Shown piece by piece: positions 59,649-64,000 of a stretch of DNA of 64,000 bases (position 1 is its first letter; every line of letters starts with the position of its first letter). The notes below the pieces were generated by a model. That model had not been told where the DNA came from. It was given only the letters and a program-made list of their open reading frames with translations, and did no database searches. The DNA is from Enterobacter phage CC31: sequence record NC_014662.1. One strand, given 5' to 3'. The position numbers and the translations under genes are program-made.

Positions 59649-60064
59649 CTTTTCCTCAACTCGGGTATGCTTTTAAATTGGTAAGTAGCGTAGTTTTCGA
59701 ATTCATCGTAAACTCGCACATAAATTTCTTCGCCACATGTTAAATTCTTAAAAGACTTCAAATCTCTTTCAGAAAAATCTATCGATACTCCATCAATAGT
59801 TCCGGAGGATTTGGCTCCGCAACCTCGAAAATGAATTGAACCACCCGGAATAATAGCTTGGTCTTCTTTGTTGGAGTAATTGTAAAATGATACACCAAAA
59901 GCTTTCTTTTTCGGATAGTAAGAAACTTCAATATTCTTTTTAAACGAACCAGTTGTTTCAACTAGCCTACCATTAATAGCATAGATGTTATCAGGATAGC
60001 CTGGGAGTTTTTCCCAGGCATTTACTGATAATGGTAGAGCTAGCAGAAATGCTGCTATTTTCAC
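59645..60064 (-). CDS. secreted hypothetical protein
   Basis: 139 aa; signal peptide MKIAAFLLALPLSVNA. Confidence 0.55.
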   Translation of the reverse strand: MKIAAFLLALPLSVNAWEKLPGYPDNIYAINGRLVETTGSFKKNIEVSYYPKKKAFGVSFYNYSNKEDQAIIPGGSIHFRGCGAKSSGTIDGVSIDFSERDLKSFKNLTCGEEIYVRVYDEFENYATYQFKSIPELRKR

Positions 60065-60387
60065 TTAGATAATCCCGCTATATACACCCTCAATAATGTG
60101 TCACGATATTCTTCGCATACATTCATATCAGGCGCATTATCACATAACGACTCAAGGTCTTTAGCCTTACGAGCCACCAAGGTAGACCATTTAAAGCGGC
60201 TACCAGAATCAGTTTGTCCTTCAGCGTAAGTTTTGTCAAAGTCAAATGACAAAATGTTCAAACACTCCGTATTAGTCTTTGTGCAGAATTGCTTTGCTAA
60301 TGTCAAAGAATCATCTTGTTCAGTAGAAAAATCAACTTTACACCCAGATAGAGCAAAAACTACTAGAAGTACAAACAACTTTTTCAT
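60061..60387 (-). CDS. putative lipoprotein
   Basis: 108 aa; MKKLFVLLVVFALSGC lipobox. Confidence 0.55.
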   Translation of the reverse strand: MKKLFVLLVVFALSGCKVDFSTEQDDSLTLAKQFCTKTNTECLNILSFDFDKTYAEGQTDSGSRFKWSTLVARKAKDLESLCDNAPDMNVCEEYRDTLLRVYIAGLSK

Positions 60388-60935
60388 TATTCCACCGTAT
60401 AATGAAGCATTTTACGAGATTTCAAGTAATTCGCCTTTGCTAATACTTCAGAGGCGTACTTGTTACCGGCTTTCCACTTGTTTCCTGCGTTGTATGACGC
60501 TATGGCTTTTCTCATATCACCGTTATGACGGTCCAGCCAATAACTTAACTCAATATACGCCCAAGCGGCGGAGTGCTTCCGGTTCTTTGCCATGCGGATG
60601 ATTTCTGCGTCTGTCATTGACCATCCGGCTTGTTTAACTCTTTCCCTGAGTGTAGGAAGATAATTTTGAAATATCCCGTAAGCGTGATGCCCGTGTTTAC
60701 CAGTTGTACGTAAGCCTGCAGAACTTTCCTGCCAGACTAGTGCAGCCATAATGTAACCAAGTCCATTGTTGTCATACCGCTTACTATGGTCTTTATACTT
60801 CCCATTCTTCTGAAATTGTTCACCAAACGAATATGCATATTGCAAATTGTCGAGTTGGACATTACTGAAGGTGTGTTCGGACGCAAATCCTAAAGACGAA
60901 ACTAGGAGTAACGCCGCGCATAGAGCTTTTTTCAT
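60387..60935 (-). CDS. secreted lytic-transglycosylase-like (SLT/lysozyme-like) protein
   Basis: 182 aa; signal peptide; WQESSAG...HAYGIFQ resembles SLT catalytic Glu-Ser and downstream Gly-h-h-Gln block. Confidence 0.55.
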   Translation of the reverse strand: MKKALCAALLLVSSLGFASEHTFSNVQLDNLQYAYSFGEQFQKNGKYKDHSKRYDNNGLGYIMAALVWQESSAGLRTTGKHGHHAYGIFQNYLPTLRERVKQAGWSMTDAEIIRMAKNRKHSAAWAYIELSYWLDRHNGDMRKAIASYNAGNKWKAGNKYASEVLAKANYLKSRKMLHYTVE

Positions 60936-60957
60936 GCTTGCCTCAATTGAAACTAAA

Positions 60958-61428
60958 TTATAACTTGATAATCTTTGTGCTGATTTTACCTTTCAAGCGT
61001 TTATCATTTACGAATGCCATGCGACATTGCATGGAGTGACCGCGGAACGGGTGTTCTGGGTTTGGTAGAGAGACAGTCATTCCAAGCCATAGAGTACCAT
61101 CAGTGATTTCCAAACGCTGAGGCCTGTATTCTACTTCTGGGTCAATTTCCGATGGGTCAATAGGAAGCATCGGCATTTCTAAGAACTCGTGAATTTCTGT
61201 TACGTGATTGTGTACTTTGTGGAACAGAGCGAACACATACTCTTCATCAATCTCCCGTTGGATAGCACGGTCCAAGAGATGATTAGAATATTTAATAAAG
61301 AAAGCTGGGATACCAGCAGATGCGCAAGCACTACGTATAGAATCGTTTACACTCTTGAACTCAGTCTCAAAGCGACGACGTAGCTTGTTTCGGCGGATGA
61401 ATACTTCTGGATTAGTTGTCATTTTCAA
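60958..61428 (-). CDS. regB: RegB site-specific endoribonuclease
   Basis: 156 aa; EVFIRRNKLRR, KYSxHLLDRAIQREIDE, EYRPxRLEITDG-LWLG, LQCRMA match recalled T4 RegB. Confidence 0.88.
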   Translation of the reverse strand: MKMTTNPEVFIRRNKLRRRFETEFKSVNDSIRSACASAGIPAFFIKYSNHLLDRAIQREIDEEYVFALFHKVHNHVTEIHEFLEMPMLPIDPSEIDPEVEYRPQRLEITDGTLWLGMTVSLPNPEHPFRGHSMQCRMAFVNDKRLKGKISTKIIKL

Positions 61429-61448
61429 TCTCCTTTGTTGATAGGGCT

Positions 61449-61478
61449 ATAGTATCATAGCCCTTGGAGAAAGTAAAC
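61449..61478 (-). promoter_or_regulatory. T4-type early promoter with embedded 8-bp inverted repeat
   Basis: minus GTTTAC (plus 61473-61478), TACTAT (plus 61449-61454); palindrome at 61443..61464 identical to the 8651..8672 copy. Confidence 0.5.
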
Positions 61479-61708
61479 TAGTAGTTTTGGTCGTCATAGA
61501 ACACTTGAAGCAGAACGTTGTTACGTAACCGCTTTGTGTCAGCTAAACGTTGTCTAAGCTTGGAGATTTTGTCCTGTACCCGGTTAAACTCTTCTGAGGT
61601 TGACGGGTCATGAATCTTCATAGCCTCATCCACAAGCTGCTCCATCTTTTCTTCCATAGCATTAATAGCTTCAGAGAAAGATTCGGAGACTTTGTTGCGG
61701 ATAGACAT
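61478..61708 (-). CDS. hypothetical protein (vs.3 position)
   Basis: 76 aa from ATG 61706-61708 overlapping upstream stop (TAATG). Confidence 0.5.
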   Translation of the reverse strand: MSIRNKVSESFSEAINAMEEKMEQLVDEAMKIHDPSTSEEFNRVQDKISKLRQRLADTKRLRNNVLLQVFYDDQNY

Positions 61709-61989
61709 TAGTACTTTTCTTCTGGTTGAAACACTGAACGGCATGCCCACATAGATGCTTCTTTAAGGTGCTGAATAGCATTACGAATTTGAGTGATACG
61801 CTCATGAGCCAAATCAAACTCTTCGTCACTAATTTTATCAACATCTAAATCCATGTATACTTTTACATGTTCTTCTTCAAGAGCTTTAAAAATCAGGCCA
61901 AGACGAAGTTCAGCATCTTTAATAGCATTCACTTTACCGATTTTATCTTCAGTATGTGGTTTATAGCCTTTGATATCTTCAATTGACAT
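61708..61989 (-). CDS. hypothetical protein at vs.4 position (possible Acb2-like cyclic-oligonucleotide sponge)
   Basis: 93 aa, second gene after regB as T4 vs.4; size matches; sequence-level homology not verifiable here. Confidence 0.5.
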   Translation of the reverse strand: MSIEDIKGYKPHTEDKIGKVNAIKDAELRLGLIFKALEEEHVKVYMDLDVDKISDEEFDLAHERITQIRNAIQHLKEASMWACRSVFQPEEKY

Positions 61990-62351
61990 TACATTTCCTT
62001 GGTGAAAGTACGTGCAATAACGTCACGCTGCTGTTCTGACGTCAGAGAATTAAATCGGACAGCATAACCAGAAACACGAATAGTCAGCTGAGGATATTTT
62101 TCTGGATGTTGAACTGCATCTTCTAAAGTTTCTTTAGTCAGAACATTCACGTTCAGATGTTGGCCACCTTCAACTTTAACTACAGGTTGACTTTCAATTC
62201 CAACTTCTCGAGATTCAAGTCCAAAGAAAGTTTCTACATCAACAATAGAATCTTCTGCCAAAGTTTTAGATACAATCACACGGGCTTTATCACCATCTTC
62301 AAGATAAATTGTGCCTTTATGAGTGCCATTCAAAATTTGATATGCGTTCAT
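61989..62351 (-). CDS. grcA: autonomous glycyl radical cofactor (GrcA/YfiD-like)
   Basis: 120 aa; C-terminal [58 protein letters not shown] almost identical to recalled E. coli GrcA, includes RVSGY glycyl radical motif. Confidence 0.85.
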
Positions 62352-62360
62352 AGTAGTTCC

Positions 62361-62597
62361 TTATGGGTATTGAATTTCTTCGTCAGTCTCTTTATCATAC
62401 TCACGAATTTTGATTGGTTCATTAATTCCGTAACCACTTATAAGAAGTCCAGTTTTAGCATCTTCCCACTGTTTAGTTTCTTCATTCCACACACCATTAG
62501 CGTGTGCTTCCATTAAATCTTGTTCGCCTTGGTTTGAAAACCAGTCGCAGAAAGATTTAACCAAGTGGTCGGGGACGTCGATAATAATTTGCGCCAT
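62361..62597 (-). CDS. hypothetical protein
   Basis: 78-aa ORF. Confidence 0.45.
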   Translation of the reverse strand: MAQIIIDVPDHLVKSFCDWFSNQGEQDLMEAHANGVWNEETKQWEDAKTGLLISGYGINEPIKIREYDKETDEEIQYP

Positions 62598-62932
62598 GTT
62601 GGCTCCAGAGAAATGACCCTGCGGTCGTAAGTAATTAAGCTTGAAGTTTTGATGCCTTTACATGGGCCAGAGATAAACTCTACTTCAAACCATGGATGCT
62701 CATTCATCAGACCTACATCCGGTGAAGTGCAGAGAAATAATGAACCTTTAAAAGGCCCATCTAAAAATCTATACAGCTTAGGTTCAAGAACTGCACCATC
62801 TGAAAACTTAATATGCAAAATATTAATCAAAGATTCTATATCACATTTTCCGGTAGAGCGCAAGAACCTGATATATTCACTTGTAGTCATTCCAAGAGCC
62901 CGAAGGCCCTTATTAAAATTTTCTTTCATCAT
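62513..62932 (-). CDS. hypothetical protein
   Basis: 139-aa ORF ATGA-coupled to upstream gene; N-terminus is encoded by a degenerate copy of the terminator hairpin, so the start could instead be ATG 62888-62890. Confidence 0.45.
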   Translation of the reverse strand: MMKENFNKGLRALGMTTSEYIRFLRSTGKCDIESLINILHIKFSDGAVLEPKLYRFLDGPFKGSLFLCTSPDVGLMNEHPWFEVEFISGPCKGIKTSSLITYDRRVISLEPTWRKLLSTSPTTWLNLSATGFQTKANKI

Positions 62933-63528
62933 TGCATTCCTATCACAAAGAATAATGGCATCATCTCTTCACCGCTAATGTGTGATTGATGAACACATGC
63001 ATAAAAAGGACCTTTGAAATGAGCTTCGTAGAACTTTTCCATTTCAGGGAGTTTCATTGGTTCTTCTATAATATACAAGATTCTGTTAAGCGTTCGGCCA
63101 CGGGCTTTTGAACCACCATTACTCAAGAAACTTCGCACAGTGTCCATGATAATCATGCGTTTAGCTTCATCTGGATTTGCTTGATGAATGAGTTCTTTCT
63201 CATAACAAGCTCGTATTCTTCTTGCTGTTTCTTCGGAGTTTCGTTGATGGGTGCTAATAATCCAGACAGTTCCACCGTCATGTAACCAGTCCGCTGCAAA
63301 TTCAGCAATAGCTTTAGTTTTACCTGACTGACGCCCGCCGTCGATTTTTAGCGTAGCATATTCGCGTAGAATATCTATAGGAGTGTAATGACTTTCTTTG
63401 AGGATTTCTATACAATCATCTGCGCGGATTTTAAATGCGTGCATCAGGGATAGATATGGAGCAAATAGAGATTTCGTTTTCATAAAGTTACCGTTAGTGA
63501 GGGCCTTCCATGGCTCAAGGATTTCCAT
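62929..63528 (-). CDS. P-loop NTPase-like hypothetical protein
   Basis: 199 aa; Walker A-like GGRQSGKT and hydrophobic-D block IIMDTV; at the position where T4 has denV but unlike DenV. Confidence 0.5.
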   Translation of the reverse strand: MEILEPWKALTNGNFMKTKSLFAPYLSLMHAFKIRADDCIEILKESHYTPIDILREYATLKIDGGRQSGKTKAIAEFAADWLHDGGTVWIISTHQRNSEETARRIRACYEKELIHQANPDEAKRMIIMDTVRSFLSNGGSKARGRTLNRILYIIEEPMKLPEMEKFYEAHFKGPFYACVHQSHISGEEMMPLFFVIGMQ

Positions 63529-63670
63529 CAGCTAGCGGGAGTGCTAGGACCCTGATTGTAACTGGCTTTACCGCACTTGGGCTCGACCTTTTTACAGGTA
63601 CCAGAAGCTACTTCACTCAGAGGACACGACGTTCATGAGGAGAGGTCCAGGTTGGCTTTTTGATTGAAGA

Positions 63671-63967
63671 TTAACTAAACGGGTCGTGGAGCTTATTACC
63701 GACACGACGGAACACTTTAGCTGCAAATTTATTGGAAGGGTTATCAACCATGACTTTGCGCATGTGACCGGTCGCAACTGTTCGAGCAGCCTTATAACCA
63801 GCAATATTATCTTTCAAAGTAATTCGACCTTTTCCTTTAGGGTCATCAATGGTCACTTTGTAAGTTCCCATATCTTCGCCAGGCTTAATTTCTTCAATCC
63901 AGATATAACCACCTGGGACTCGCTTTTGTTCAGCGGCTTCAGTAATAAATTCGTTGTAGGTTTTCAT
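63671..63967 (-). CDS. internal protein (capsid-targeted, IP family)
   Basis: 98 aa; N-terminal MKTYNEFITEA matches T4 internal-protein capsid targeting sequence consensus MKTYQEFIAEA; basic body. Confidence 0.7.
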   Translation of the reverse strand: MKTYNEFITEAAEQKRVPGGYIWIEEIKPGEDMGTYKVTIDDPKGKGRITLKDNIAGYKAARTVATGHMRKVMVDNPSNKFAAKVFRRVGNKLHDPFS

Positions 63968-64000
63968 TTTAATCCTTAGTTGTAAATAGCCTTACCATAA

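Follow-up and report, generated by a model that had tools for sequence, protein, structure and literature searches.

A vs.4/acb2 gene for a probable anti-CBASS cyclic-dinucleotide sponge in a Karamvirus-type T4-like phage

T4 Vs.4 (Acb2) forms a hexamer that holds three ligands, with a Kd of about 30-84 nM for 3',3'-cGAMP (Jenson 2023, PMC10097602; Cao 2023). The cGAMP is stacked on Y8 and F82, while Y8, H11, K23, and R79 make hydrogen bonds or salt bridges to it and S74 is also counted among the contacts; T12 is a helix cap, and the hexamer interface includes L29, A66, A73, A77, and, more mildly, F33. Mutation of these contact, cap, and interface residues abolishes function, and S74N, T12I, and A77I are loss-of-function alleles (Jenson 2023, PMC10097602).

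T4 and CHI14 Acb2 bind cyclic dinucleotides only. The Acb2 proteins of PaMx33 and JBD67 also bind cyclic trinucleotides, via R67 and T74 in PaMx33 (Huiting 2023, Cao 2023/2024). T4 Acb2, which has D61 and T68, does not bind cA3 even as a D61R variant, and this has been ascribed to an unkinked helix together with crowding by Y37, A57, L60, D61, and T64, the residues of its closed trimeric pocket (Cao 2023). The ligand of Acb2_43 is 3'cADPR, and this protein fails to inhibit CBASS (Hadary 2025).

Here, we describe a 93-codon ORF in the window, i.e., the whole 64,000-nucleotide stretch of DNA that was analysed. This ORF is very probably the vs.4/acb2 gene of a Karamvirus-type T4-like phage related to Enterobacter phage PG7, and its product would be a hexameric cyclic-dinucleotide sponge that acts against CBASS. 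It is an ordinary gene of an already known, well-studied family. An earlier note, made from the DNA letters alone, had listed the ORF as a 93-aa protein at the vs.4 position, and the ORF is indeed a real gene: its frame fills the interval in Table 1 exactly, from an ATG start to a TAA stop on the minus strand, and 1,230 phage records contain a tblastn match to the protein. Compared with five relatives from four genera of T4-like phages, dN/dS is 0.03-0.08 at dS 0.3-2.4 (Nei-Gojobori), and the nucleotide differences are mostly synonymous; the ORF is therefore under strong purifying selection. Both of its junctions, on the start side and on the stop side, read TAATG. The vs.4 ATG (61987-61989) shares a nucleotide with the TAA (61989-61991) that ends the GrcA-like gene upstream, and the vs.4 TAA (61708-61710) shares one with the ATG (61706-61708) that opens the 76-aa ORF downstream. 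These overlaps and the tight packing of the genes suggest one operon with coupled translation. A scan near vs.4 for sigma-70 promoters, a class distinct from T4 middle and late promoters, and for terminators gave none above shuffled expectation, and an Rfam search of 60000-64000 gave no match at E <= 1.

Table 1. Features of the vs.4/acb2 locus, in window coordinates
Feature	Position	Strand	Evidence
regB endoribonuclease	60958..61428	minus	Pfam REGB_T4, 233.8 bits
76-aa ORF at the vs.3 position; start overlaps vs.4 stop	61478..61708	minus	PHROG 24679
vs.4/acb2 coding sequence, 93 aa + TAA	61708..61989	minus	ORF list; Vs.4/Pfam matches; dN/dS
Codons 71-93, conserved C-terminal helix and tail (A...LKEASMWACRSVFQPEEKY), with A71, A78, A82 and S79, R84, F87	61711..61779	minus	mean entropy 0.34 bits
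Codons 35-70, hypervariable helical-hairpin tip, with E38, H62, I65, T66, R69	61780..61887	minus	mean column entropy 2.22 bits
Codons 1-34, conserved N-terminal segment, with Y9, H12, T13, K24, L30, F34	61888..61989	minus	mean column entropy 0.43 bits
GrcA-like gene (T4 vs.6 equivalent); stop overlaps vs.4 start	61989..62351	minus	Pfam Gly_radical E = 1.6e-17; PG7 and T4 annotations
Shine-Dalgarno-like AAGGAA, 5 nt 5' of vs.4 ATG, within the last GrcA-like codons	61995..62000	minus	sequence read directly

The 93-aa protein is homologous to T4 Vs.4/Acb2, which the earlier note had raised as a possibility based on size and position. That note had also proposed a pairwise alignment with T4 Vs.4, and this alignment gives 63% identity (BLASTP E = 6e-37; T4 protein translated from NC_000866). 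In a phmmer search of all PDB chains, the one strong match is 7UQ2 "Vs.4" (E = 6.9e-28, residues 3-93). The protein scores 59.8 bits with Pfam PF24729 (Acb2_Tad1_hairpin), for which the gathering cut-off is 27, and it matches PHROG 717 at E = 8.3e-28, the group by which Jenson et al. 2023 (PMC10097602) defined Vs.4 homologues. A profile built from 48 homologues reaches 7UQ2 Vs.4 at E = 1.2e-40 and, over the full length, the PaMx33 Acb2 structures 8H2J and 8IXZ at E = 5.6e-5; in the latter match, the ligand-binding residues Y11 and K26 of PaMx33 line up with Y9 and K24 of the 93-aa protein. NCBIfam has no model for the protein. No Tad1-named chain occurs among the PDB sequence matches at E <= 1, whether the single sequence or the profile is used.

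Structure prediction gives the same picture. The AlphaFold2 model, based on the alignment of the 48 homologues (pLDDT 88.1), has two long helices (14-46 and 55-86). In Foldseek, the top three PDB matches are 7UQ2 chains A, D, and B with TM 0.68-0.78 (best E = 1.7e-6, TM 0.75/0.78), followed by PaMx33 Acb2 8H2J (TM 0.73). The predicted fold thus contains the hairpin of two antiparallel helices, about 90 aa in all, that is found in the Acb2 family. Across the single-sequence, profile, and Foldseek searches of the PDB, the matches below E = 0.001 are solely Vs.4 and PaMx33 Acb2 (p26) chains.

The residues on which T4 Vs.4 depends are conserved. We verified the T4 residue numbering on the translated T4 gene and scored conservation over 117 homologues. 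The cGAMP-contact residues Y9, H12, K24, S79, R84, and F87 correspond to T4 Y8, H11, K23, S74, R79, and F82; all are identical, and all six are invariant among these homologues. T13 is identical to the T4 helix cap T12, and L30, F34, A71, A78, and A82 are identical to the five hexamer-interface residues L29, F33, A66, A73, and A77 of T4. Apart from F33, the cap and interface positions are invariant or nearly so among the homologues; the F33 position holds F in 79 and L in 36 of the 117.

By transfer from T4 Vs.4 and PaMx33 Acb2, we infer hexamer formation, ligand binding, ligand range, and CBASS inhibition for the 93-aa protein. It would fold as a two-helix hairpin and assemble into a hexamer, in which paired N-terminal segments would grip three ligands, 3',3'-cGAMP or related cyclic dinucleotides that serve as CBASS signals. 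In such a complex, Y9 and F87 would provide the stacking surfaces for the purine bases, and H12, K24, S79, and R84 would hold the phosphates and riboses of the ligand. The signal would be sequestered without cleavage, so that CBASS effectors such as the phospholipase CapV would be kept inactive and the phage could replicate.

The genes around vs.4 place the locus among T4-like phages of the Karamvirus type. The surrounding 1.8 kb shares 90-92% nucleotide identity with Karamvirus phages (Enterobacter phages fGh-Ecl01 and PG7, and Cronobacter phage Pet-CM3-4). The gene order in the window is tk, tk.4, an extra ORF, vs, vs.1, regB, the 76-aa ORF, the 93-aa ORF, the GrcA-like gene, vs.7-like ORFs, and vs.8. 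This order, and with it the position of vs.4, agrees with PG7, fGh-Ecl01, EnC07, and T4. The gene for Acb1 (T4 gene 57B) is expected past the end of the window. The earlier note had read regB, 76-aa, 93-aa, and GrcA-like as a mirror of the T4 arrangement. The order itself was read correctly, but the parallel with T4 (regB, vs.3, vs.4, vs.5, vs.6[GrcA]) is incomplete: vs.5 is missing at its T4 place, and the 76-aa ORF has no detectable homology to T4 Vs.3. It belongs to PHROG 24679 instead of PHROG 2037, the group of T4 Vs.3, and BLASTP against T4 Vs.3 gives E = 0.086; we rejected this assignment. The 76-aa neighbour is thus a stand-in for Vs.3 by position only. It is listed among the ORFs as a 90-aa, GTG-started version, and the ATG that overlaps the vs.4 stop agrees with the PG7 annotation.

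Further upstream, a 78-aa ORF at 62361-62597 (minus) matches PHROG 1986, the same group that is matched by the N-terminus of T4 Vs.5. A Vs.5-like gene therefore lies upstream of the GrcA-like gene, not between the GrcA-like gene and vs.4. The 78-aa ORF overlaps the 3' end of a 139-aa vs.7-like ORF (62513-62932, minus) by 85 nt. The stretch corresponding to 62361-62932 is one 156-aa ORF in PG7, and 139 and 50 aa in fGh-Ecl01.

Several annotations of this region carry names that do not belong to the gene. In GenBank records related to 60387-61989, names have passed wrongly from one gene to its neighbour; for example, fGh-Ecl01 lists the SLT-domain gene vs.1 as "site-specific RNA endonuclease." In a Vs.4 cluster, one JGI member is named "NAD-dependent DNA ligase," and we rejected both this name and "RegB-like endonuclease" for the homologue clusters that carry them, as neither has Pfam or fold support. 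No identical sequence to the 93-aa protein is present in a collection of 5.8 billion proteins, in which the best match is 97-98%. Proteins at 97-98% identity are named "Acb2/Tad1 hairpin domain-containing protein" in UniRef, and the orthologue in at least one T4-like record is annotated as "anti-CBASS protein 2."

Variation among the homologues is concentrated in the hairpin tip. Mean column entropy is 2.22 bits in aa 35-70 vs. 0.43 bits in the N-terminal and 0.34 bits in the C-terminal segment, the homologues are 81 to 98 aa long, and alignment gaps fall in the tip. The 37% of positions that differ from T4 Vs.4 likewise cluster in residues 35-70. Since the tip is hypervariable across homologues, the mosaic appearance of the comparison with T4 is a property of the whole family and not peculiar to this protein. 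All five residues that close the trimeric pocket in T4 are replaced (E38, H62, I65, T66, and R69). Residues 35-70 are weakly similar to T4 and include an insertion of 4-5 residues, so details of the hexamer geometry could differ.

The tip bears on the one rival reading that concerns function within the family, namely that the protein is an Acb2-family sponge whose ligand range is broader than, or other than, that of T4 Vs.4, extending to cyclic trinucleotides in the central trimeric pocket or to Thoeris or other signals. We regard this as unlikely. In its favour, none of the T4 pocket-filling side chains is retained, the T4 combination of tip residues is rare among the 117 homologues while that of the 93-aa protein is among the commonest, and some Acb2 homologues bind cA3 or 3'cADPR. 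In a hexamer, three R69 arginines could face the central trimeric pocket. However, the residues that are essential for cA3 in PaMx33, R67 and T74, correspond to T66 and Q73, so neither is kept and the known trinucleotide site is not present. T4 D61R gained no cA3 binding, which indicates that helix geometry counts besides side chains, and the extra N- and C-terminal beta-strands of the 3'cADPR-binding Acb2_43 are not in the AlphaFold2 model, which shows single bridge residues at 9 and 92. Shifts in specificity such as that of Acb2_43 mean that family membership alone does not fix the ligand; the 93-aa protein retains all T4 contact residues. By default, we expect it to bind cyclic dinucleotides only, as T4 and CHI14 Acb2 do. 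It is quite unlikely that the common, non-T4 tip variant has a second ligand site that T4 Vs.4 lacks, or some other ligand range; if it did have such a site, the negative cA3 result for T4 would be unrepresentative of most T4-like Acb2 proteins.

Two further readings would deny the protein a place in the Acb2 family or a function at all, and both fare poorly against the same data. The name "RegB-like RNA endonuclease" stands on a few GenBank orthologue records: it is used for a protein of Yersinia phage vB_YenM_P8, and in the fGh-Ecl01 record, a Klebsiella phage protein of that name is cited with 90% identity. The Pfam model REGB_T4, which gives 233.8 bits for the genuine regB two genes further down, does not match the 93-aa ORF, and the predicted fold is a bare helical hairpin. 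The chance that the name describes the function is close to nil, and most likely it spread from the neighbouring gene. It is also very improbable that the ORF is decayed or functionless and retained by position. Its small size and the "hypothetical protein" annotations are all that speak for this, against the low dN/dS where dS is 0.3-2.4, functional residues that are invariant across 117 homologues, and junctions that appear to be translationally coupled. We therefore keep to the reading as an Acb2-family sponge, for which vs.4/acb2 (anti-CBASS sponge) is the proper label, instead of "hypothetical protein" or "RegB-like endonuclease."

Beyond correct annotation, the importance of this assignment is small. 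Based on published work on T4 Acb2, the phage is predicted to be resistant to cGAMP-type CBASS without signal overproduction. The same work predicts that it is sensitive to Panoptes-type guard systems, which fire when a T4 Acb2-type sponge removes their 2',3'-c-di-AMP decoy.

Some observations concern the vs.8 end of the region. The vs.8 ORF is listed at 62929-63528 on the minus strand (199 aa); by comparison with PG7 and other genera, translation probably begins further in, at the ATG at 63483 (MKTKSLFAPYLSLM). Vs.8 resembles terminase ATPases, with weak Terminase_6N and AAA matches, and according to a 2026 preprint, its co-expression with the immune sensor EcAvs2 is toxic. The window lacks denV (endonuclease V). 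Colinearity with PG7 breaks off at 63661 and resumes at 63671; in between, about 9 bp stand in place of the approximately 470 bp that carry denV in PG7 (L001 5764-6235).

The gap upstream of vs.8 (63484-63670) contains an element of about 50 nt at 63558-63607 (minus). Its core of about 30 nt is nearly invariant and reads ACCUGUAAAAAGGUCGAGCCCAAGUGCGGUAA in the window, with the loop GUAAUA in most other copies. A covariance model of the 50-nt alignment finds one copy in the window, at these coordinates (67 bits). The core is present in several hundred T4-like records, and the copy in T4 itself falls within the 5' end of vs.8 as annotated. The annotated T4 vs.8 ORF (L002 6754-7413) runs through this conserved non-coding element, and the annotation may be over-extended. 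Unrelated phages carry the core as well: in rV5-like phages it precedes their tRNA cluster by about 600 bp, and in Pseudomonas phage PsgM04F it sits within a tRNA gene cluster, on the tRNA strand; there are Campylobacter phage copies, too. Searches for it in 5,426 complete E. coli genomes, in Rfam 15, and in the searchable literature gave no match. In some Karamvirus-like and PEi20-like contigs, the element is followed about 115 nt downstream by a second, diverged tandem copy, which model R1 scores at 36-51 bits (L019 9134-9181, L049 476-523, and L028 5091-5138); the window has a single copy.

The element has hardly changed even in comparisons in which the adjacent genes have reached synonymous saturation, and it is a candidate structured RNA. 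In the helix that closes the core, one pair is AU, UA, UG, or CG in all 23 distinct sequences, and a second pair switches between CG and GC; the diverged second copy has an AU-to-GC double change in an inner hairpin. The covariation score is 0.175 vs. 0.059 +/- 0.018 in shuffles, for a structure that was picked by eye from the same sequences as were scored. Single-sequence MFE z-scores are about 0 on both strands, and the single-sequence MFE folds disagree among themselves. RNAalifold, run on a plain MAFFT alignment, gave no more than two hairpins, both invariant, and a cross-clade permutation test of duplex energy was not significant (p = 0.064).

Compared with known relatives, the 93-aa protein is closest to the Vs.4 orthologues of Karamvirus, Jiaodavirus, and Gaprivervirus (e.g., fGh-Ecl01, PG7, Pet-CM3-4, and Klebsiella phage phiKp_22), with which it shares 81-98% aa identity, the same tip variant, and the same neighbours, and from which it differs by few substitutions. 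With T4 Vs.4 (7UQ2), it shares the position on the regB side, and the two proteins are almost the same towards both ends (aa 3-34 and aa 75-93), whereas their tips (aa 35-70) have little sequence in common, and that of the 93-aa protein exceeds the T4 one by 4-5 residues. In T4, vs.5 separates vs.4 from the GrcA-like gene, while the two genes abut in the window. PaMx33 Acb2 belongs to the same Pfam family and has the same hairpin fold (TM 0.73), with Y11 and K26 equivalent to Y9 and K24; however, it is reachable by profile only (E = 5.6e-5), shares about 18% identity in the structural alignment, and binds cyclic trinucleotides via R67 and T74, where the 93-aa protein has T66 and Q73.
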